The position numbers and the translations under genes were made by a program. This document shows, piece after piece, positions 8,858 to 51,760 of a stretch of 64,000 nucleotides of DNA. Every line of letters starts with the position of its first letter. Position 1 is the stretch's first letter. This DNA is from Eledone cirrhosa (taxonomy: Eukaryota): positions 307,396,001-307,460,000 of the forward strand of contig OZ024741.1 of the NCBI GenBank assembly GCA_964016885.1, given 5' to 3'. The notes under the pieces were generated by a model that saw only the letters and a program-made list of their open reading frames with translations, was not told where the DNA came from and searched no databases.

Positions 8858-9842
8858 TTTGCTCTCCTTTTCTCCTTTCCTCGTTGCTCTCGTTGCTCTC
8901 CTTTTCTCATTGCTCTCATTGCTCTCCTTGTTCTCCTTGCTCTCTTGCTCCCCTTTTCTCCTTCCTCCCCTTGCTCTCCTTGCTCTACTTTTCTCATTGC
9001 TCTCCTTACTCTCCCTTTCTCCTTGCTCTCCTTGCTCTCCTTGCTCTTCTTACTCTTCTTTTCTCCTCCCTCTCTTTGCTCTCCTTACTCTACTTTTATC
9101 CTTCCTCTCCTTCCTCTCCTTTTATCCTTGCTCTATCTGCTCTCCTTTTATCCTTGCTCTCCTTGCTCTCCCTTTCTCATCGCTCTCTTTGCATTCCTTA
9201 CTCTCCTTTTCTCCTTCCTCTCCTTGCTCTCCCTTTATCTTTGCTCCCCCTGCTCCCCTTTTCTCCTTGCTCTCCTTGCTCTCATTGTTCTCCTTTTCTC
9301 ATTGCACTCCTTACTCTCTTTGCTCTCCTTGCTCTCCTTACTCTTCTTTTCTACCCCCTCTCCTTGCTCTCCTTTTATGCTTGCTCTCTTTTTCTCATCG
9401 CATGCTTGCCCTCCTTACTCTCCTTTTCTCCTTCCTCTCCTTGCTCTCCTTTTATCCATGCTCTCCCTGCTCTCCTTTTATCCTTGCTTCCTTGCTCTCC
9501 TTTTCTCATCGCTTTCCTTGCATTCCTTACTCTCCTTTTCTCCTTCCTCTCCTTGCTCTCCTTTTATCTTTGCTTCCCCTGCTCCCCTTTTCTCCTTGCT
9601 CTCCTTGCTCTCCCTTTCTCCTTGCTCTCATTGTTCCCCTTTTCTCTTTGCTCTCCTTGCTCTCCTTACTCTTCTTTTCTCCCCCCTCTCCTTGCTCTCC
9701 TTTAATCCTTGCTCTTCTTGCTCTCCTTTTGTCATTCCTCTCCTTGCTCTCCTTTTGTCATTTCTCTCCTTGCTCTAATTTTCTCATTGCTATCATTGCT
9801 CTCCTTTTATGCTTGCTCTCCTTGCTATCCTTGTTCTCCCTT
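8858..9842. repeat. Pyrimidine-rich degenerate tandem repeat (CTCTCCTTG-like units)
   Basis: ~1 kb of C/T-dominated 9-mer-based repeats; source of the spurious Leu/Ser/Pro ORFs. Confidence 0.9.
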
Positions 9843-17449: not shown

Positions 17450-17594
17450 ATTTGCCACAGGGGCGTAAAAAGCCCACAGAGGGACTAGCTTCGGCCACAG
17501 AGGGACTTCAACCCACGACCTCAGATGACTTTTAGATGATGTCATTAACAGTCTGATGCTCAGCCGACTGAGATATGCGGTCTAACTTAACAGT
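17450..17594 (-). mobile_element. tRNA-headed short element with a Tx1-like 3' tail, in (TATC)n
   Basis: Minus strand: 12-nt leader, tRNA cloverleaf 17582-17492, TTTTT, then GCCCCTGTGGCAAATATATCTAT. (TATC)-type repeats on both sides. Confidence 0.65.
17492..17582 (-). tRNA. tRNA-like sequence (Lys-like body, anticodon reads GTT) with a 19-nt insertion at 37/38; probably a pseudogene or SINE head
   Basis: GACCGCA-TATCTCAGTCGGCTGAGC-A-TCAGA-CTGTTA-[19 nt]-A-TCTGA-GGTC-GTGGGTTGAAGTCCCTC-TGTGGCC-G. T-loop reads GTTG instead of GTTC. Confidence 0.6.
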
Positions 17595-22673: not shown

Positions 22674-23552
22674 TGGTTGTCTGTCTGTCTATCGATTTTT
22701 GGCACACATCTCCTCTTAGAATCTCTCACGGAATTGCACCGAAATTGCTATACTTGTACATTGAGCCCTAGCGAAGACATCGGAAAAAAAAATTTAAAAT
22801 TGACCCACCCTATGTGACGAAATCGAATATAATGTATCGATTTTTGAGCGTAAGTTATCAGTTATTTCCCTTTGTTCTGTTTACATTGAGCGTCTTACGT
22901 AAAAAATTACGTTGGCTTTCTCAGTTGTCGAGCCAGCAAAATATTGACCTGCAAAATTCATCAGTTCGAACACTAAGCTTCCGTTTTGCTTCATTTCCAT
23001 TTAAAAGCATTTTAAAACAATAATTTTACTTGAAAACAAGTCTATTTAAAGACTACGTAAAACAAGCAAATATTTCGTCGTTAGGCGTGCAGACAGACAG
23101 TCGTGCAGAGAGGTGATATACGCGTGCAGACAGACAGTCGTGCAGAGAGGTGATATAGGCGTGCAGACAGATAGTCGTGCAGAGAGGTGATATAGGCGTG
23201 CAGACAGACAGTCGTGCAGAGAGGTGATATAGGCGTGCAGACAGACATAACTGATAATTTGGTTATGCTAATGTTTTTCTCTGCGTTGCAGTGTTTACAT
23301 TTTCGATCTTTGTTAATAAATAACCAGTGCAGTTTCTATCCCCAGCATCCTCTTTTGTTATAACATTCGGGTTATCGTTATGTTTTCTTAACTTCATAAG
23401 GCATATTGTTGGTTGAGGGAATATTAATCAAAAACACCACATGCAAGTCTGCACAGTAGACACTACAGTTTTTAAGCCAAGAAAGAAACTTAACATTGTA
23501 ACTTTAACACAGCTACTGAGCGACCCCGAGCAACGCCGGGCTTTACTGCTAG
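22660..23552 (+). mobile_element. Non-autonomous Helitron, copy 1
   Basis: 3' hairpin CCCG-AGCAACGC-CGGG followed by CTAG|T; 5' TATATAAA..(GTCT)n; internal 36-bp minisatellite. Confidence 0.8.
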
Positions 23553-24609
23553 TATATATATAAAGCTGTGGTTGTCTGTCTGTCTATTGATTTTTGGCAC
23601 ACATCTCCTCTTAGAATCTCTGACGGAATTGCACCGAAATTGCTATACTTGTACATTGAACCCTAGCGAAAACATCGGAAAAAAAATATTTCAAATTGAC
23701 CCACCTTATGTGACGAAATCGAATCTAATGTATCGATTTTTGAGCGTAAGTGACGAGTCATTTCCCTTTGTTCTGTTTACATTGAGCGTCTGCGTGCAAA
23801 AATTAAAAAAATTACGCTGGCTTTCTCAGCGTTTAAAATGACATTAACACAATACACGAACAGTTGTCGAGCCAGCAAAATTTTGACCTGCAAAATTCAT
23901 CAGTTCGAACACTAAGCTTCCGTTTTGCTTCATTTCCATTTAAAAGCCTTTTAAAACAATATTTTTACTTGAAAACAAGTCTATTTAAAGACTACGTAAA
24001 ACAAGCAAATATTTCGTAAAAAAAAGCAAAAATTATATAAGTTTATTTAAAATATATGTATCTGTAAATTTCGTTAGGCGTGCAGACAGACAGTCGTGCA
24101 GACAGACAGTCGTGCAGACAGACAGTCGTGCAGACAGACAGTCGTGCAGACAGACAGTCGTGCAGAGAGGTGATATACGCGTACAGACAGATAGTCGTTC
24201 AGAGAGGTGATATACGCGTGCAGACAGACAGTCGTGCAGAGAGGTGATATAGGCGTGCAGACAGACAGTCGTGCAGAGAGGTGATATAGGCGTGCAGAGA
24301 GACATAACTGATAATTTGGTTACGCTAATGTTTTTCTCTGCGTTGCAGTGTTTACATTTTCGATCTTTGTTAATAAATAACCTGTGCAGTTTCTATCCCC
24401 AGCATCCTCTTTTGTTATAACATTCGGGTTATCGTTATGTTTTCTTAACTTCATAAGGCATATTGTTGGTTGAGGGAATATTAATAAAAAACACCACATG
24501 CAAGTCTGCACAGTAGACACTACAGTTTTTAAGCCAAAAAAGAAACTTAACATTGTAACTTTAACACAGCTACTGAGCGACCCCGAGCAACGCCGGGCTT
24601 TACTGCTAG
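23553..24609 (+). mobile_element. Non-autonomous Helitron, copy 2 (tandem)
   Basis: Direct repeat of copy 1 with indels; same hairpin + CTAG|T end at 24606-24610. Confidence 0.8.
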
Positions 24610-40017: not shown

Positions 40018-40487
40018 CCTGCAATAGATCGACTCCTGCGCTTGATGGTCCGTAGATGTTGTGAGAGGAATATGATGTTATCTGCCTGATATATACAGAC
40101 TTGTTCAATAGATCGACTCCTGCGCTTGATGATCCGTAGATGTGAGAGGAATATGATGTTATCTGCCTGATATATACAGACTTGTTCAATACATGGGCTC
40201 CTGCGCTTGATGGTCCATAGATGTGAGAGGAATATGATGTTATCTGCCTGATATATACAGACTTGTTCAATACATGGGCTCCTGCGCTTGATGGTCCGTA
40301 GATGTGAGAGGAATATGATGTTATCTGCCTGATATATACAGACTTGTTCAATACATGGGCTCCTGCGCTTGATGGTCCGTAGATGTGAGAGGAATATGAT
40401 GTTATCTGCCTGATATATACAGACTTGTTCAATACATGGGCTCCTGCGCTTGATGGTCCGTAGATGTGAGAGGGATATGATGTTAGC
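40018..40487. repeat. 81-bp minisatellite, ~6 units
   Basis: Unit ATATGATGTTATCTGCC...GATGTGAGAGGA recurs every 81 bp; two more units at 41440-41600. Confidence 0.9.
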
Positions 40488-41946: not shown

Positions 41947-42087
41947 TGTATGTATATATGTATGTATGCGGATGGATGGACGTATGTACGTTTCTATATA
42001 TGTATATGTATGTGCCAATATCTCTAATTTCGTATGTATCTCACTCTCACTCATACATCGTACCTCTATCTATCCACCAATCAATCA

Positions 42088-42165
<78 letters not shown>

Positions 42166-42220
42166 TATCTATCTATCTATATATCTATCTACCTACATAC
42201 CCACCTACTTACCTACCTAC

Positions 42221-42266
<46 letters not shown>

Positions 42267-42475
42267 GGGATGGACACACGCGTATAACTTGCTGAGTAAG
42301 TTCTGTTTAAATTTCTATAGAAATTCTTGTCTGATAACTTTAATTTTTGTACCATTTTGTAGAGGGACTGCCAGGTCAAACTTTGATCTGGTCAGTCTCT
42401 CAAAATATTCTACGCCTTTAGGCGAAATAGTTAAAAAAAAAGTTTTTTCTTGTTGAAAAGTCAATATTTTTTTAA

Positions 42476-44257
42476 ATGGCCGAAGCTTCTTCACCAAAAT
42501 TCGAAGGAGGAAAGGGGAAGATGAACTTACAGCTTCCCCCTGCCACTGTCACAGTAGCAGAGGTCAAGAAGATAGGTCAGCCAGAGGAAGAATTCTCTCC
42601 ACCTGTTAACCGACAACTTGACGTTACCATGGCAACAACCCAAAGAACCAACAGCAACAACAACAACAATGCGACGGTAGAAAACAACACCAATAACAAT
42701 AACAATAACAACAACAAGACCAATAACGGTGACAACAACAACAATGATAACAACAACACCACCAACGACAACAACAACACAAACAAACAAAATTTCTCCT
42801 TCGCCGAGACGACAAGGAAAACCCTCGACTATCTGCCAGTAGATATAACAAAAGCGAAGGAGCTACTGGCGGATGCGAAAAAATATATAGTGTACGGGGA
42901 AAATGGTTCATTCACAATCCATTCCCCCCCGGAACTAAAAAGCCAGAGACTCCTAAACACGGTCATGTTTAGGACAATCTCGAACAAAAGTAAAAAACCA
43001 GCTCAACCATCACAGAGCGAGATAGAGCTGGTTTTAAAAGACGTCATGAAGGACATCACCTTCATTCAGAAGGATAGACTCTACGGGAGTCTATCCATTC
43101 TCATGAAGGACAGGGACACAGCAGTGAAACTGTCCATCAAACCAATCACATCCACCGCATACACCTTCTACCCTACGTACATGGGTAGAAGAACACAAAA
43201 AATAAAAATCCACACCATCCTGCCGATTATGGACATATGGTGGGTTTTGACAGGTTTTCTGGACCTGGAGGATGACATGCTGGTGTCCATGGGAAAGGCA
43301 TCGGGTGACGCGTTCAGTGGAACGAGCCTCGAACTTGTAGTTCAAATGAGGCCCGAAAGGATCGCCCAGATCCCTGAACGCGTCATACTGGATGATCTAA
43401 CCTTCATCAACATTACCGTTGAGGGTAGACGGCCCTCGTGTTACCTCTGCGGAACCAGAGGTCACCTGAGGGCTGTCTGTCCCCAACTTAATAAGAAAAC
43501 CCCAATCCTGCCTACACCACCAACAACTGCACAACCAACACAATCACCACAACAACCACTACAAAAACAACCACCACAGCTCAAACCAAAACAAAACAAT
43601 GTCCAACCCATCCCCTCCACTCAAAAAACAAAAACAATTTCCAAAACACCCGTACCGCAAACACAACCCGAAAATATACCCCTCCCCTCCAACGCGGAAG
43701 ATGACCCTAGTTCGTCGTCAGACGAGGAGGAGCACTTCCACACAATCAAAAGAAAAAAAAGAAAACACACCTCAGACACACAAATGAAAAAAACCCCTCC
43801 CCAAAACATAACACTGACACCAACACAAAAGAGCTCACAACAGCAAACAAAAAACACCACACAAAAACAAAAACATGCATACACATACATAAATACAAGA
43901 AACAAAAAACTGTTAAACATTGTGTACAACAACAATCTAATAAAAACACAAGGGCCTAACTTCACCCAGGCAGGGGATTTCCCCCACCTCAAAATGATTA
44001 AGGCCCCACAGGACACCTATAAAACTTTAAAAAACAATTTTAAAGAGGACGTGGGTCCCCCCTGCGTCGGGCCCATTAACCGAGTCCTCCTAAAAAACTA
44101 TCCCACCCCCTCCCCAAACACCCTCACAACTCCAAGCTCCCCAACCACACAACACACTGATGCCCCCACACTTCCACAAACCACCACCCCACCCAACAAC
44201 CCATCCCCCACCCTAATGGAAATTGTGCAGCCCGATACCCGGGACACAGAGAGGTAA
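42476..44257 (+). CDS. ORF1 gag-like nucleic-acid-binding protein of the Tx1-like element
   Basis: 593-aa ORF with a CCHC knuckle (CYLCGTRGHLRAVC), an Asn-rich N-terminus and a Pro/Thr/Gln-rich C-terminus, directly upstream of ORF2. Confidence 0.88.
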   Translation: MAEASSPKFEGGKGKMNLQLPPATVTVAEVKKIGQPEEEFSPPVNRQLDVTMATTQRTNSNNNNNATVENNTNNNNNNNNKTNNGDNNNNDNNNTTNDNNNTNKQNFSFAETTRKTLDYLPVDITKAKELLADAKKYIVYGENGSFTIHSPPELKSQRLLNTVMFRTISNKSKKPAQPSQSEIELVLKDVMKDITFIQKDRLYGSLSILMKDRDTAVKLSIKPITSTAYTFYPTYMGRRTQKIKIHTILPIMDIWWVLTGFLDLEDDMLVSMGKASGDAFSGTSLELVVQMRPERIAQIPERVILDDLTFINITVEGRRPSCYLCGTRGHLRAVCPQLNKKTPILPTPPTTAQPTQSPQQPLQKQPPQLKPKQNNVQPIPSTQKTKTISKTPVPQTQPENIPLPSNAEDDPSSSSDEEEHFHTIKRKKRKHTSDTQMKKTPPQNITLTPTQKSSQQQTKNTTQKQKHAYTYINTRNKKLLNIVYNNNLIKTQGPNFTQAGDFPHLKMIKAPQDTYKTLKNNFKEDVGPPCVGPINRVLLKNYPTPSPNTLTTPSSPTTQHTDAPTLPQTTTPPNNPSPTLMEIVQPDTRDTER

Positions 44258-44281
44258 GTGCCTTTTCTCTTCACCACCAAC

Positions 44282-47200
44282 ATGGCTATGCTAAGAGTAG
44301 GCTGTTTAAATGCGCGTGGCCTGGGCTCAACTTGGAAGCAAGCAATGCTTCTAAATGACCTCAGGTCACAACGTATAGATGTGATGGTTATTTGCGAGGC
44401 CCGGATCAGCAACGTGCGACAGCTGGCCCCCACCTTTGATGACTTCGAGATGCACGCATCTCTCTGTCAGCCTGGAGGTGGGGGTGGAGTTGTCGTTCTG
44501 CTGCAAAAACATCTGGGTCTCGCAACACAGATGGTACATTTGGACCCGGAGGGTCGACTAGTGGTTCTGGACCTTGGCAGTGGTAAAGGCGGAGCGTTTA
44601 GGTTGGTAGCCGCCTACGGCCCTTTCGGGTCAATGCGGCCGGACTTCTTCCATCGTCTGGAGACTTTTCTAGGGACGTCCCGCTCCTTGCTATTAGTGGG
44701 GGACTGGAATGGTATCCTAGATGCACGCTGGGACTACGTAGGGGCCTGCCCCGATAGAGAGGGGTGTAATAGCCTCAAAGGGTTAATCGGTCGATTTGAC
44801 CTGGCCGATAGATATCGACTAGATTTTCCGACTGCGCCAACCTGGACTTGGGCAAATCGTAGCGGATCATCTAGGTCGTACCTAGATAGGTTCTTAGTTA
44901 GAATTAAGGATAAGGACTTTTTAAGTTGTCCAAAAATGCGCATTGTTGGCTATTCAGACCACAAATTAGTGACCTGCATGGTCAACCTTGACAGAACTCA
45001 TAGACAGGGCCCCGGTTACTGGAAGCTCAACTTGTCCTTGCCGGCAAGTAGAGCCTACAGGAATCGGATTAGTACGTTAGTTAAGGAACGGTTGACTGGA
45101 GCGATCGTCAACAGCAGGTGGTGGGTATCTCTAAAGAGAGAGATTAGAGTAGTCTCGATAGAATTTAGTAAGGTTCTAGCTGCGGATAGGAATAGGAAGG
45201 AAAGGGAGCTAATAGATAGAGTAGAAGAGGCAATTAGAAGCGGCGACGTGGCCAGAGTGCTAGCGTCGAGAACGGCTTTGAGCCAGTTTTTCGACGCGAA
45301 GCACGAAGGCTGCGTTGTCCGAAGTAAAATACGTGCTCTAGGGAACGAGGGGACCAAAGCTGTTAGCTGGGCCCGCGTGACAGAGGCCAACAGTGGAACT
45401 AAATCCACCATCCGGTCTTTGCGAGACCTGGATGGACGGGCGATTCTTGAGCCTAAGCAGATGTGTGAGGCCTTTCAAAGGCACTTTGCCCGACTGTTCG
45501 GGAGGGGCGGGGAGCCGGTTGGGAACGTGGACTTCGGTCCATACCTCGACGGCCTGCCGCGCCTCTCGGACAGGGAGGCGAAGTCCTGCGAGGAGCCGAT
45601 TTCGGCCGCTGAGATAGAGGACGTGCTGAGCCAATGCGGCAAACGCAAATCCCCGGGTCTCGATGGTCTTCCTTACGAATTATATCTAGCTATGCCGGAC
45701 TTGTTCCCCGATCTCCTCGAGGCGGTCTACTGCAACTGGCAACAGAACGGGAGAATTCCCTGTACTGTGACCAAGGGCGTAGTCACGCTAGTGAGGAAGG
45801 ACGAGAACAAGGGGGACGAAATAAGTAACTTCAGGCCCATAACACTGCTAAATACAGAGTTACAGATTTTGGCCAAGGTGCTAGCAAAGAGGTTGGCGCT
45901 TGTCGTGGGCAACCTGGTGGGAGATGCGCAGACATGCGCTATCCCGTCCAGGTCCATCCATGACAACCTCCACCTCATGCGATACATCATAGAGAGGGTT
46001 GGGAACGAACCCGGCTTTGGTGGGGCTCTGATCAACTTGGATCAATCTAAGGCGTTCGATAGGGTCGACCATGGTTACCTGGATGCGGTGCTAGCGGCGG
46101 CAGGCTTCGGACCCGTTTTCAGGGGCTGGATCACTGCTATGCACAGCAGCCGCATCTGCTCTAGGGTCAAGGTGAACGGCTACCTCTCGGAGCCGTTCAA
46201 AATCGCGCGGTCCATCCGACAAGGGTGCCCTCTCTCCTCCCTTCTGTATGTATTGACTCTCGAGCCACTACTGCGGAAGTTGGAGTTGTTGCAGGGCATC
46301 CCTTTGGAACCGGGATTGCGGAAAGCGGTGTCGGCCTACGCCGATGACGTGACAGTAATGGTGTCGACGGCCTCCGAAATCGAGGCGGTCGGCACCTTAC
46401 TGGAGGAGTACGAAAAGTTCACAGGGGCTAAGCTGAACCGGGACAAGTCGATCGGTTTGCAACTCGGCACGTGGAGGGGCAGACCGATGCCCTCCGATAG
46501 CGTCGTCGGACGCTGGACGGAGGGCCCGGTGAAGTTGCTCGGGGTCTGGTTCGGACCGGACCTCCAGGTGGAGAAAAACTGGGCGGAGGTTACGAACAGA
46601 GTGTTTGCACTGACCCAGAAGTGGGCCAGTTGCAAACTATCCCTGAAAGGTCGGGCGGAGGTGGCGAACACCTACATAGCGTCCGTCATCTACTACCGCC
46701 TGACCGTAGTGCCCTGCCCAAGGGAAACCCTCACCAAGATGGAGCGCGCGCTCTTCCAATTCCTTTGGAAGAGGCGGGCTCCTATGGTGAGGAGATCCAT
46801 CTGCTGTCAACACCCTTCGAAAGGAGGGCTGGGGATGCCGTGGCTAATGATGCGTAAACACGCATTAAGGCTACGGCACCTCTACGTATTCCTCACCGGA
46901 CAACCGGTGTGGGCCTCGTTTGTGAGACGAACCTTTCCCAGACTCGTCTCACTCACCGAGCTGCAATCCTGGGTCAAGCAAAGACCGAGAAAACTGGGCG
47001 CCTGGCACACTGAGTGTGCCCAGGCGCTCACCGCCCTCTGGCAGGCGGATCCGGTTATCAGTGGAGACTCCACCGCAACATTCTATAGAGGGCTGGTACG
47101 CAGCAGGTGCGACGACGCCCTCGGAGAAGCCCTAGACATGGAGGAGGACGAACTGGCCAGCCTTTTCGGTAGGACATTCAGCCCGGGACCTATGGACAAC

Positions 47201-47719
47201 TTCCAGAAGTCCCTGGCCTGGCAGTGCTACCGAGGGGCTTTACCCGTTCGAGAAAGGCTCTACAGACACGGGCGCCCGGGTAGGGACCCCGCCAAAAAGA
47301 TCTGTCCCAGATGCGTGTGCGACGAGGAAACCGTTGCACACGCATTAGTACACTGCTCGGGCGTAGCCGATCTGTGGGGCTATGTCGAACAACTGCTGTC
47401 AAGGGTGGGACCGATCCGGTTGACCACCGAGTCTATTGTAATGATCAAGCCGCCTCCCCCCTTCAAAGATGAAGCAGAGGCGGTGTTTCTGTGCGTAATA
47501 GCCATGGCGAAAGAGGTTGTATGGTGGACGCGTCTGAAAGGACTGAGGTCGGGCACCTTTCTCTCTGGCCAACAACTGGTCCGTTTCTTCCGATATCATT
47601 TCGGAAGAAGGATCAGGATGGAGAGAGAGGTGCTGCACCCCAGCCGTTTCTATGAAAGATGGGTGAAAGTGGCGAGAATGGCCCGTGTGAATGGGCCTTC
47701 ACTCTACATCAGACTATAG
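44282..47719 (+). CDS. ORF2: APE endonuclease + reverse transcriptase + C-terminal Zn finger
   Basis: APE motifs LNARGL, GDWN, YLDR, SDH. RT motifs PGLDG, FRPITLLN, DQSKAFDRVDH, IRQGCPLS, YADD. C-terminal CPRC..ETVAHALVHC. First ATG at 44282; the ORF track starts at the GTG at 44258. Confidence 0.95.
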   Translation: MAMLRVGCLNARGLGSTWKQAMLLNDLRSQRIDVMVICEARISNVRQLAPTFDDFEMHASLCQPGGGGGVVVLLQKHLGLATQMVHLDPEGRLVVLDLGSGKGGAFRLVAAYGPFGSMRPDFFHRLETFLGTSRSLLLVGDWNGILDARWDYVGACPDREGCNSLKGLIGRFDLADRYRLDFPTAPTWTWANRSGSSRSYLDRFLVRIKDKDFLSCPKMRIVGYSDHKLVTCMVNLDRTHRQGPGYWKLNLSLPASRAYRNRISTLVKERLTGAIVNSRWWVSLKREIRVVSIEFSKVLAADRNRKERELIDRVEEAIRSGDVARVLASRTALSQFFDAKHEGCVVRSKIRALGNEGTKAVSWARVTEANSGTKSTIRSLRDLDGRAILEPKQMCEAFQRHFARLFGRGGEPVGNVDFGPYLDGLPRLSDREAKSCEEPISAAEIEDVLSQCGKRKSPGLDGLPYELYLAMPDLFPDLLEAVYCNWQQNGRIPCTVTKGVVTLVRKDENKGDEISNFRPITLLNTELQILAKVLAKRLALVVGNLVGDAQTCAIPSRSIHDNLHLMRYIIERVGNEPGFGGALINLDQSKAFDRVDHGYLDAVLAAAGFGPVFRGWITAMHSSRICSRVKVNGYLSEPFKIARSIRQGCPLSSLLYVLTLEPLLRKLELLQGIPLEPGLRKAVSAYADDVTVMVSTASEIEAVGTLLEEYEKFTGAKLNRDKSIGLQLGTWRGRPMPSDSVVGRWTEGPVKLLGVWFGPDLQVEKNWAEVTNRVFALTQKWASCKLSLKGRAEVANTYIASVIYYRLTVVPCPRETLTKMERALFQFLWKRRAPMVRRSICCQHPSKGGLGMPWLMMRKHALRLRHLYVFLTGQPVWASFVRRTFPRLVSLTELQSWVKQRPRKLGAWHTECAQALTALWQADPVISGDSTATFYRGLVRSRCDDALGEALDMEEDELASLFGRTFSPGPMDNFQKSLAWQCYRGALPVRERLYRHGRPGRDPAKKICPRCVCDEETVAHALVHCSGVADLWGYVEQLLSRVGPIRLTTESIVMIKPPPPFKDEAEAVFLCVIAMAKEVVWWTRLKGLRSGTFLSGQQLVRFFRYHFGRRIRMEREVLHPSRFYERWVKVARMARVNGPSLYIRL

Positions 47720-47983
47720 GTGAGGAAGATGAAAGACCAAGGGAGCACCCCTTCTCTGTGCTCCTGAGGAGAAGGGTTGCACACTTTTTTCGGGGGTGTG
47801 TGCGACCCCCCAAGGCGCCTCCTCTCTATTGAGGATTTTGTTAAAAATTTTATTTTTTGTTATATCTTATTTTATTTTTATATTTTGTTATTGCCTCCTC
47901 CTTATTGAGGACGCCTTTTTGTGTAAACTCCCCCCTTTGTACTTGTCCCACTTTTGATGCCCTAGTGGCAAATAAAAGAAATA

Positions 47984-48038
<55 letters not shown>

Positions 48039-48039
48039 A

Positions 48040-50706
48040 TAAGAGGCACTTAGGAGTGGCAACGTAGCCAGCGTGCTAGCGACGAGAACGGCCTTGGACC
48101 AGTTCTTCGACGCAAAGCACGAAGGCTGCGTTGTCAGAAGCAAAATACGTGCTCTGGGAAACGAGGGAGCCAAAGCTGTTAGCTGGGCCCGCGTGACGGA
48201 GGCGAAAAGTGGCAACAAGTCCACGATTCGGTCTTTGAAGGACCAAGACGGACGCGTGATACATTAGCCGAAGCAAATGTGCGCGGCCTTTCAGCGGCAC
48301 TTTGCTCAACTGTTCGGGCAGGGCGGCGCGCCGAGAGGGGCTATGGGTTCGGTTCATACCTCGACGGCCTACCGCGACTCTCGGACAGCGAGGCGAAGTT
48401 CTGCGAAAGGCCGATTTCGGCCGCTGAGATAGGAAACGCGCTGAGCCAATGCGGCAAACGCAAATCTCCAGGTCTCGACGGTCTACCCTACGAATTTTAA
48501 GTAGCAATGCCGGACTTGTTCTCCGGTCTCCTGGAAGCGATCTACTGCAACTGGCAGCAGAACGGGAGAATTCCCAGTTCTGTGACCAAGGGCGTAATCA
48601 CGTTAGTCAGGAAGGACGAGAACAAGGGGGATGACATAGGCAACTTCCGGCCCATAACTCTGCTCAACACAGAGTTACAGATTTTGGCCAAGGTGTTGGC
48701 AAAGAGGCTGGCGCTTGTCGTCGAAAACATGGTGGGAGAAGCGCAGACATGCGCAATCCCGACCAGGTCCATACACGACATCCTCCACCTCATGCGATAC
48801 ATCATAGAGAGGGTAGGGTGTAAACCCGGCTTCGGTGGGGCCCTGATCAACTTGGATCAGTCTAAGGCTTTCGATAGGGTTGATCATCGTTACCTGGATG
48901 CGGTGCTCGAGGCGGCAGGCTTCGGTCCCGTGTTCAGGGGCTGTATTGCTGCAATGCACAGCAGCAACATCTGCTCAAGGGTCAAGGTGAACGGCTACCT
49001 CTCGGAGCCGTTCCATATCACGCGATCCATCCGACAGGGATGCCCTCTCTCCTCCCTTCTGTACGTACTGATTCTCGAGCCACTACTGCGGAAGTTGGAG
49101 TTATTGCAGGGCATCCCTTTGGAACCGGGACTGCGAAAAGCGGCGTCGGCCTACGCCGACGACGTAACAGTAATGGTGTCGAGCACCTCGCAAATCGGGG
49201 GGATCGGCACCTTATTGGAGGAATACGAAAGATTCACAGGAGCGAAGCTGAACCGGGACAAATCCGTCGATTTGCAACTCGGAACGTGGAGAGGCAAACC
49301 GATGCCTTCCGATGACGTTGTCGGACGCTGGACGGAAGGACCGGTAAAGCTGCTCGGGCTCTGGTTTGGTTCGGACCTCCAGGTGGACAAGAACTGTAAC
49401 GAGGTGACGGCCAAGGTGGCGAACAGTTTTATAGCATCCGACATCTACTACCGCTTGACCGTCGTGCCTTGTTTAGCCAAAACGCTCACCAAAATGGAGT
49501 GCACGCTCTTCCAATTCCTTTGGAAGAAAGGGCTCCTTTGGTGAGAAGATCCATCTGATGCCAACACCCTTCAAACGGAGGGCTGAGGATGCCGTGGCTG
49601 ACGATGCGCAAACACGCGCTCAGGCTGCGGCACCTCCACGTATTCCTCACCAGACAACCGGTGTGGGCCCCGTTCGTGAGGCGAGCCTTCCCACGACTCG
49701 TCTCACTGACCGATCTGCAGTCCTGGGTCAAGAAAAGACCGAGGAAAATGGGCGACTGGCACATCGAATGTGCTCAGGCGCTCACAGTCCTCTGGCAAAC
49801 AGACCCGGCGATCAGTGGAGACTCCACTTCGACATTCTATAGAGGGTTGGTCTGCAGCAAGTGCGACGACGCGCTCGGAGAAACTCTAGGCGTAGAGGAG
49901 GACGAACTGGTCAGTCTGTTCGGTAGGACCTTCCGCCCGGGACCAATGGACAACTTCCAAAAGTCCCTGGCCTGGCAGTGCTACCGAGGAGCTCTACCAG
50001 TTCGAGACAAGCTCTACAGACACGGGCGTCCGGGTAGGGACCCTTCGAAAAAGATCTGTCCGAGATACGTGCGCGACGAGGAAACCGTCTCACACGGATT
50101 TCTACACTGCCCGGGCGTTACCGACCTGTGGGGCTATGTAGAACGACTATTGTCGCGGGTGGGACCAATCCAGTTGACCACCGAGTCCATTTTCATGATC
50201 AAACTGCCACCCTCCTTCAAAAACGAGTGAGAGGCGGTTTTCCTATGTGTTATGGCTATGGTGAAAGAGGTTATATGGTGGACGAGGTTAAAAGGGCAGA
50301 GGTCAGACACCTTTCTCTCCGGCAAGCAACTGATTCGTTTTTTCAAATAGCATTTTGGAAGAAGAATCAGGATGGAGAGAGAGGTGCTGTACCCCAGCAA
50401 ATTTTATAAAAGGTGGGTGAATGTGGCAAAGATGGCCCGAGTGGTTGGGCCTTCTCTCTATATAAGCCTGTAGGTTGAGGAAAAAAAGGAAGAGAGGATG
50501 GGAGTACTCACCCTTGGTGCTCCTGGAGATGAGGGTTGTACATTTTTTTGGGGGGTGTACAACCCCTGTGTAACACCTCCCCCCTATTGGGGATTTCAAT
50601 TGTTATTTGTTATTGTATTAATAGTTTTATTTTCATATACCTGTATGTAACCTCCCGCATTTGTATTTGTCCCCTTCTTTCGTGCCCTTGTGGCTAATAA
50701 AGAAAT
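48040..50706 (+). pseudogene. 5'-truncated, decayed second Tx1-like copy (ORF2 RT/ZnF region and 3' UTR)
   Basis: Colinear with 45224-47982. Contains stops, frameshifts and an internal deletion. ORF fragments 48507-49544 and 49589-50230 match ORF2. Flanked by (TATC)n on both sides. Confidence 0.92.
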
Positions 50707-50763
<57 letters not shown>

Positions 50764-50949
50764 CATCTATCTATCTATCTATCTACCTACCCCCTACTTA
50801 CCTACCTACCTACCTACCTACCTACCTATCTATCTATCTATCTACCTACCCCCTACTTACCTACCTACCTACCTACCTACCTATCTATCTATCTATCTAT
50901 CTACCTACCCCCTACTTACCTACCTACCTATCTATCTATCTATATATCT

Positions 50950-51202
50950 ATATCAGCCTGTAGGTTGAGGAAAAGGAGGAGGAGAGGAAAGGAGTACAAG
51001 CTCTTCGTACTCCTGGAGATGAGGGTTGCACATTTTTTTCGGGGGTCTGTGTTACCCATATAAACTGTCTCCCTCTATTGGGGAAAATCGACTAACTTTT
51101 AAATTCCATCTGTGATAACATTTTACACGTTTTTATTGTATGTAAACTTCCCCCTTTGTATTTGTCCCCTTCTTTTGTGCCCCTGTGGCTAATAAAGAAA
51201 TA
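50950..51202 (+). mobile_element. Third Tx1-like copy, 3' UTR only
   Basis: Begins AGCCTGTAGGTTGAGG (ORF2 stop region) and ends GCCCCTGTGGCTAATAAAGAAATATATC, matching copies 1 and 2. Confidence 0.85.
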
Positions 51203-51760
51203 TATCTATATATCTACATTCATAATTAATAAAGAGAGATATTTATCTACATTCATAGAAATATAGATAGCAAGCTAGCTAGATAGATAGGGGCAGACAA
51301 GGAGATGGATAAATAGATATATATATATAGATGATATATAGGTAAGTGGGTAGACAGATAGATAGATATTTGCATTTTAATCTGCCTGTAACAGCCCCCC
51401 TCCCATCTACTTGTGTCTGAATTGTTTCTGTTGTCGCTCTTAACACCTACACCTTTCACTGTACACCATACGTCCCACTCTGTCTTTTAATGTAACTTCT
51501 ATTTATATAGCAGGCTTCAGTGATTACCATTGTCTTGTTAGGAACTCGTCTTTTGATAAATTTCACTGGTTTTGTTGTCACTTCAAAATAACATTCAATA
51601 TGGCGCCCATAATTGAAAAAAAAAAAAAACTTTACAATTTATGTCCTCTAGTTCCACAGACGAATGCCTGATGTTTGAGCGAATACGTGTGTATACGTAT
51701 GAATATTTGTAAATATACTACACACACACACACACTAACGCACTTACGCACTTACACACT

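Follow-up and report, generated by a model that had tools for sequence, protein, structure and literature searches.

Introduction

Target-primed reverse transcription is the established route of integration for long interspersed nuclear elements (LINEs) of the APE type. Human L1 uses poly(A) and TTTT/AA sites, and the Waldo and Mino elements belong to the R1 clade. Several APE-type elements reside in microsatellites, including Waldo (ACAY) and Mino (AC)n (PMC3812793). Within Tx1, Kibi, Koshi and the crocodilian families prefer (TC)n, (TTC)n and (TTCC)n/(TTTC)n, respectively (PMC4494074). Tx1L of Xenopus laevis has a single target site within the Tx1D transposon (PMC1950540), and a list of recently active L1-Tx1 families from Octopus vulgaris has 13 entries, which account for 421 insertions (PMC13282606). 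In this study, we characterized a stretch of 64,000 nt from Eledone cirrhosa (contig OZ024741.1; hereafter, the window), which contains a full-length LINE that we call element A. We found A to be an intact Tx1-like LINE that has multiplied recently. Its copies occur at TAT[C/A]T, for the most part within (TATC)n, and probably arise by target-primed reverse transcription into pre-existing repeats.

For microsatellite-seeking Tx1 elements, (TATC)n/(GATA)n appears to be a new target, used here by a lineage that is distinct from those of vertebrates. No TATC/GATA target for Tx1 was present in the literature searched, which covered the cited sources in part and did not extend to Repbase, to Kojima and Fujiwara (2004) or to the supplements of PMC4494074.

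Element A and its neighbours

The features of the locus are as follows, with coordinates given as positions in the window.

42065..42266, + strand: compound (TATC)n array with TACC units, 5' of A (repeat scan)
42267..47983 (start likely 42264), + strand: element A, full-length Tx1-like LINE (identity to other copies)
42476..44257, + strand: open reading frame (ORF) 1 of A, 593 amino acids, no internal stop
44282..47719, + strand: ORF2 of A, 1145 amino acids, no internal stop
47720..47983, + strand: 3' untranslated region (UTR) of A, at whose end stand a small predicted hairpin, AATAAAAGAAA and the dinucleotide TA; poly(A) is absent
47984..48038, + strand: (TATC)13.8 array between A and B (repeat scan)
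about 48038..50707, + strand: copy B, decayed 5'-truncated relative, starting near ORF2 residue 316
50708..50951, + strand: compound (TATC)/(TACC) array between B and C (repeat scan)
50937..50950, + strand: left copy of the 14-bp target-site duplication of C (sequence)
about 50947..51202, + strand: copy C, 3' end of a sister subfamily with little beyond the 3' UTR (76% identity to B)
51203..51216, + strand: right copy of the 14-bp target-site duplication of C, TATCTATATATCTA (exact copy of 50937-50950)

A preliminary description, made from the sequence alone, had reported three LINE copies on the same strand, each bounded by (TATC)n and without poly(A), with AATAAA(A)GAAAT joined to the repeat. 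The three copies A, B and C indeed lie on one strand with TATC arrays in between. Each of them terminates in AATAAA(A)GAAA and two further nucleotides and lacks poly(A), and a run of A followed none of the 156 matches to the 3' end of element A that were examined (overlapping loci counted repeatedly). The arrays are found as described in front of A, B and C, the two long ones being compound with TACC; behind C there is none, only the 14-bp duplication. The TCT at 42264-42266 is likely part of element A rather than of the array, and the hairpin at the end of the 3' UTR has a predicted energy of about -7 kcal/mol, a value obtained with no shuffle control. The same description presented B and C as diverged relatives. 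B is 81-86% identical to A, and its ORF2 has 5 stops and 2 frameshifts as well as a deletion of about 64 bp. C is diverged from B, at 76% identity, and is not necessarily old; the 259 bp of this short copy are 100% identical to copies at two other loci (L185 and L186).

Both ORFs of A are intact, as had been claimed, and ORF2 starts 24 nt after the ORF1 stop in the frame common to both, and a single stop separates them. ORF2 comprises an APE endonuclease (residues 23-227), a reverse transcriptase (RT; residues 512-755, with YADD) and a zf-RVT motif (residues 976-1032). Pfam searches recovered the endonuclease and the RT, and the zf-RVT match was below the cut-off. The APE motifs align with their counterparts in Tx1L and human L1, and the arrangement of two ORFs, the second with an N-terminal APE, an RT and a C-terminal zinc motif, is that of the L1/Tx1 group. 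ORF1 of the Tx1 clade carries a CCHC zinc knuckle. The N-terminal part of ORF1 of A is rich in Asn and Thr, and a weak knuckle is present at about residues 321-337 (one CX2CX4HX4C; PF00098, E 0.051, below the cut-off). ORF1 look-alikes bear zf-CCHC, and a ZCCHC3 RNA-binding cluster at 0.89 offers no more than a lead. Two splice-donor-like GTAAGT sites were also observed, one of them in the 5' UTR, followed after about 65 nt by a T-rich AG (42294-42362), and the other overlapping the ORF1 stop (44251-44260); GGTAAG is retained in several sister 5' UTRs.

Relationship to known systems

Protein searches returned a match with 69% identity and further proteins at about 40%, and the closest named match to the RT region is from Argonauta hians (67%). 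A turtle protein among the matches led to Tx1L. We built a quick RT tree of 49 rows that included plant L1, with neither vertebrate L1 nor a Repbase set. In this tree, A, the 69% match and the Argonauta sequence cluster together (100) within a wider lineage (99). That lineage and the vertebrate Tx1 group share a branch whose SH-like approximate likelihood ratio test (SH-aLRT) value is 92 (unstarred), and plant L1 stands apart at 100. The RT region of A is 33-41% identical to the vertebrate Tx1 group and 24-28% identical to plant L1. As judged from this quick tree, A would be Tx1-like, in agreement with the preliminary description, and would belong to a lineage separate from the vertebrate Tx1 group (Tx1L and a Tetraodon pol-like protein).

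Human L1 ORF2p (PDB 8sxt) is the best solved relative of A's ORF2 (E 3e-48 over residues 8-857). The endonuclease hairpin has 9 residues between anchors in both, whereas L1 has a poly(A) that A lacks. Tx1L (YTX2_XENLA, P0301) shares the ORF2 layout of A; the two proteins are 30% identical across 833 aligned positions (E 3e-89) and 36% identical in the RT region. It differs from A in having a hairpin of 11 residues instead of 9 (PMC1950540) and an ORF2 of 1308 instead of 1145 amino acids, and the target of A is looser. Kibi, Koshi and the crocodilian families are, like A, Tx1-type APE-RT LINEs with a preference for microsatellites, and they were compared with A by their published targets (PMC4494074). 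None of the (TC)n, (TTC)n, (TTCC)n and (TTTC)n targets of that lineage describes A, which uses TATC with a TAT[C/A]T core, this core being at the start of the flank at 1904 of 1959 3' ends. Waldo and Mino use other repeat units. Drosophila R1, although of another clade and with a 28S ribosomal DNA target, resembles A in several respects. Its insertions are flanked by duplications of about 14 bp, its truncated 5' ends show microhomology, reinsertion into the duplicated target builds up tandem arrays, and some full-length copies have additional target-like bases at the 5' end (PMC2718515); A shows the corresponding duplication, 5' microhomology, stacking and extra 5' nucleotides.

Copy number and age of the family

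Copies were counted by exact sequence patterns in the genome of 3.0 Gb, which contains 355 matches to the first 30 bases of A and 1959 matches to the 26-mer at its 3' end. The 39 best other 5' matches are 99.67-99.95% identical to A over the aligned parts, and both ORFs are open in 34 of them (33 by a stricter motif check). Because these copies were picked for their likeness to A, they show that intact copies are numerous and say nothing of the intact share. Judged by the identity between copies, on which its youth rests, the family of A has recently multiplied, which agrees with the recent origin proposed in the preliminary description. Some copies are duplicated or in tandem (L143/L144; L032/L057), and 5' inversions or inverted flanks were seen at L035, L038 and L147. 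Twin priming or fold-back is expected to give 5' inversions. In addition, two sequencing runs labelled as other organisms (X3 and X6) contain contigs about 99% identical to A, with 3 differences over 1665 nt in one match and 3 over 767 nt in the other, at a depth of about 3; a close species, contamination or transfer may be their source. A search of sequencing runs for the element listed no RNA run that contains it.

Insertion sites

Genome-wide, NN-TAT[A/C]T lies behind 97% of the 1959 3' ends, and NN-TATCTATC, searched with a pattern one base shorter on the left, behind 1284 (about 66%). In a background of 20 stretches of 10 kb, TAT[A/C]T starts at 2.9% of strand positions and TATCTATC at 18 of 399,520 (0.0045%), and no (TATC)5 array occurs in these 200 kb. 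TATCTATC also follows 133 of 179 distinct sister 3' ends, at loci partly selected for TATC. A family is counted as target-specific when one sequence type is found in >20% of its flanks (PMC4494074). For the family of A, this share is about 66% at 3' junctions and 49% at truncated 5' junctions, and hence the family counts as target-specific. Nevertheless, the element had been described as specific for (TATC)n, and strict specificity was rejected: about a third of the 3' ends lack TATCTATC, and some copies are found instead in (TA)n or (TATATC)n tracts, in minisatellites or in unique DNA, where the sequence starts with TAT[C/A]T. The preference for TATC is strong, not strict.

The presence of TATC at the 5' junctions of other copies had been set in advance as the test of the preliminary description. 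The junction sample consisted of the first 69 of the 1959 listed 3' ends, all on contig C1. Five copies were excluded (L109, L123, L151, L157 and L159), their 5' neighbour being the same element after internal deletion or rearrangement, which left 11 near-full-length and 53 truncated copies. TATC-like bases lie 5' of all 30 full-length 5' ends first examined, with just a few in one. TCTCT precedes 247 of the 355 intact 5' ends, and WTCT 68. This TCTCT is out of phase with (TATC)n, and in six of six full-length copies with a readable duplication, 6-22 extra TATC-like nucleotides lie between the duplication and the element. These two facts indicate that the 5' leader is probably, at least in part, element-borne, so that full-length 5' junctions are poor evidence for a target and were rejected as such, and truncated copies provide the fair test.

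In the truncated copies, TATC was found at the 5' junction. At least three TATC units lie within 30 nt upstream of 26 of the 53 (background 0.016%), and 16 of these 26 are not stacked on another Tx1 end. Two units precede 7 further copies (background 0.063%), (TA)5+ precedes 8 (6.7%) and other DNA 12. The enrichment amounts to about 3000-fold for TATC and about 2-fold for (TA)n. The duplications were analysed with L064 left out. Interrupted targets are duplicated, with 11-22 bp on both sides, and a non-periodic duplication can be read in 17 truncated copies, in 12 of which it measures 12-22 bp and abuts the element or overlaps it by <=5 nt. Both 5' truncations and target-site duplications are features of the L1/Tx1 group. 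At sites in minisatellite or unique DNA (L083, L112, L135, L143/144 and L145), the copies have no TATC tail. The duplication of interrupted targets and the lack of a tail at clean non-TATC sites argue that the repeat is mostly target and not tail. A pure element-made tail was rejected, given this lack of a tail and the TATC upstream of truncated copies. At L143-L145 (C1:108.72-108.83 Mb), a minisatellite whose unit has no TATC repeat received two independent insertions at the same unit position, one of which is duplicated.

Integration model and alternative explanations

In the model that we favour, the APE domain would nick the GATA strand within 5'-A[G/T]ATA-3' or directly after it; the exact bond cannot be read because the RNA end and the target share bases. 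The freed DNA end would prime on the poly(A)-less 3' end of the RNA, which probably extends a few bases into the TATC flank of the donor and would pair there with the primer. The duplication would result from a second cut placed 11-22 bp further along. Truncated cDNAs would be joined via 1-5 nt of microhomology, and full-length ones via the TCT/TATC-like leader. Because an insertion is flanked by target at either end, further copies, including those of sister subfamilies, can line up head to tail, which is the arrangement seen in A, B and C.

Several observations weigh against insertion into pre-existing TATC repeats. About 34% of the 3' ends are without two TATC units, and 20 of the 53 truncated copies have fewer than two units upstream. 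The junction sample contains one duplicated insertion (L143/144) and stacks. In 5 of the 17 truncated copies with a readable duplication, 4-23 extra nucleotides lie behind it, and four copies (L113, L114, L141 and L155) have TATC on the 3' side with no 5' match, a pattern that fits a short RNA-derived tail or a target deletion. No empty allele was seen among the matches listed for contigs of five runs at L031 and L137, a comparison that skips the junction repeats and is uninformative either way. Paralogous empty sites were likewise not found among the collected loci, where the matches listed were only Tx1 stacks and self-matches. Finally, the hairpin, which helps to set the selectivity of the endonuclease, has 9 residues as in the promiscuous human L1 (PMC1950540), and the enzyme may recognise a short motif only. 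This hairpin would be compatible with a short core motif, the rest being supplied by repeat structure or RNA pairing.

Another explanation, which we consider possible, if on balance unlikely, is that the endonuclease is loose and the RNA picks the site, only those nicks that pair with the TATC read-through tail of the transcript priming well. Site choice by RNA pairing has been proposed for RTE elements (PMC6007223). The missing poly(A) and the hairpin length speak for it, as do the two bases before TAT[C/A]T. These are often unlike the target and partly track sub-lineages, with TA in the youngest haplotypes and CA, CT or CC in others, which suggests that the RNA end is inherited. Moreover, flanks that start with TATAT are rarer after TA ends (2 of 27) than after CT (7 of 18) or CA (3 of 21), although these lineage counts are small and may reflect age. 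However, the CC-ended copy at L143 and the TA-ended copy at L145 share one position of a minisatellite unit without TATC repeat, and the Tx1L endonuclease is itself sequence-specific (PMC1950540). Pairing by the RNA and target-primed insertion into pre-existing repeats can coexist.

It is far less probable that the element itself makes the TATC, as a 3' tail plus extra 5' units, and otherwise inserts almost at random in AT-rich DNA. The extra TATC-like nucleotides of all six informative full-length copies would follow from such a process, and the lack of an observed empty allele and the position of 23 of the first 30 long arrays next to such an element point the same way. Yet 33 of the 53 truncated copies, which have no 5' leader, still have TATC upstream, repeat interruptions are duplicated on both sides, clean copies at non-TATC sites carry no tail, and 7 of the 30 long arrays have no Tx1 nearby. 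As a sole cause, element-made TATC is largely refuted. Least credible of all, and in our view highly improbable, is a broad insertion pattern in which copies in TATC arrays were simply retained, or were later multiplied by recombination or assembly duplication. The duplicated and tandem copies mentioned above would suit it. The youngest copies, however, already show the pattern, on many contigs and with differing flanks and truncation points, and selection could hardly attain a thousand-fold enrichment in a fixed register and orientation.

TATC arrays in the genome

Starts of (TATC)6 or longer number 12,640 genome-wide, with interrupted arrays counted repeatedly. Of the first 30 long TATC arrays on C1, 23 adjoin A or a relative, or about 17 of 23 when separate places are counted, and the other 7 have no Tx1 match nearby. 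The relatives found at TATC arrays reach down to about 40% ORF1 identity. These data suggest that most long arrays are occupied by one radiating LINE lineage, the sample being small and non-random, and they are compatible alike with the saturation of old arrays and with array growth by insertion. At L191 and L201/L202, a different repeat has a (TATC)n(TA)n tract at its end, with no Tx1 present. A full-length copy of A lies within such a tract of that repeat at L068, and TATC targets are therefore also supplied by other repeats.

A more speculative proposal, to which we give about one chance in four in qualitative terms and hold as doubtful, is that the clade makes its own landing pads and its RNA carries the address, long GATA arrays being mostly the products and homes of one LINE lineage. 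Each insertion would duplicate TATC, full-length copies would add more at their 5' end, and read-through RNA would direct the next copy to the repeat type of the donor site. If this were true, target switches could stem from the donor flank and not from a change in the enzyme.

With its many near-identical intact copies, this family lends itself to studies of how the site is chosen, by the endonuclease or by RNA-DNA pairing. As an integration tool the element is weak, with >12,000 target sites in the genome and off-target sites common. Microsatellite markers of the GATA type can be expected to coincide frequently with the ends of mobile elements in this animal.

Other features of the window

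Seven further long ORFs in the window have no Pfam match. Minisatellites with units of 9, 37 and 81 bp lie at 8859-9839, 23082-24304 and 40022-40485, respectively, and the first of them yields long open frames without Pfam match.

A decayed, intron-containing tRNA-Lys(TTT)-like copy was identified at 17451-17590 on the minus strand (Rfam), with 89% identity to an intact gene at L211. It sits behind a TATC array and is fused to about 30 nt that resemble the 3' end of the LINE clade, 18 nt being identical to a sister family. Such a LINE-like tail was present in none of the 19 other matches inspected, out of 39. The fusion is likely a one-off tRNA-LINE chimera or a rare short interspersed nuclear element (SINE) mobilised by the clade. 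Intron-containing tRNA-Lys(TTT) genes are also found in tandem, with a spacing of about 1.29 kb, at C2:99.03-99.11 Mb (L218-L239).

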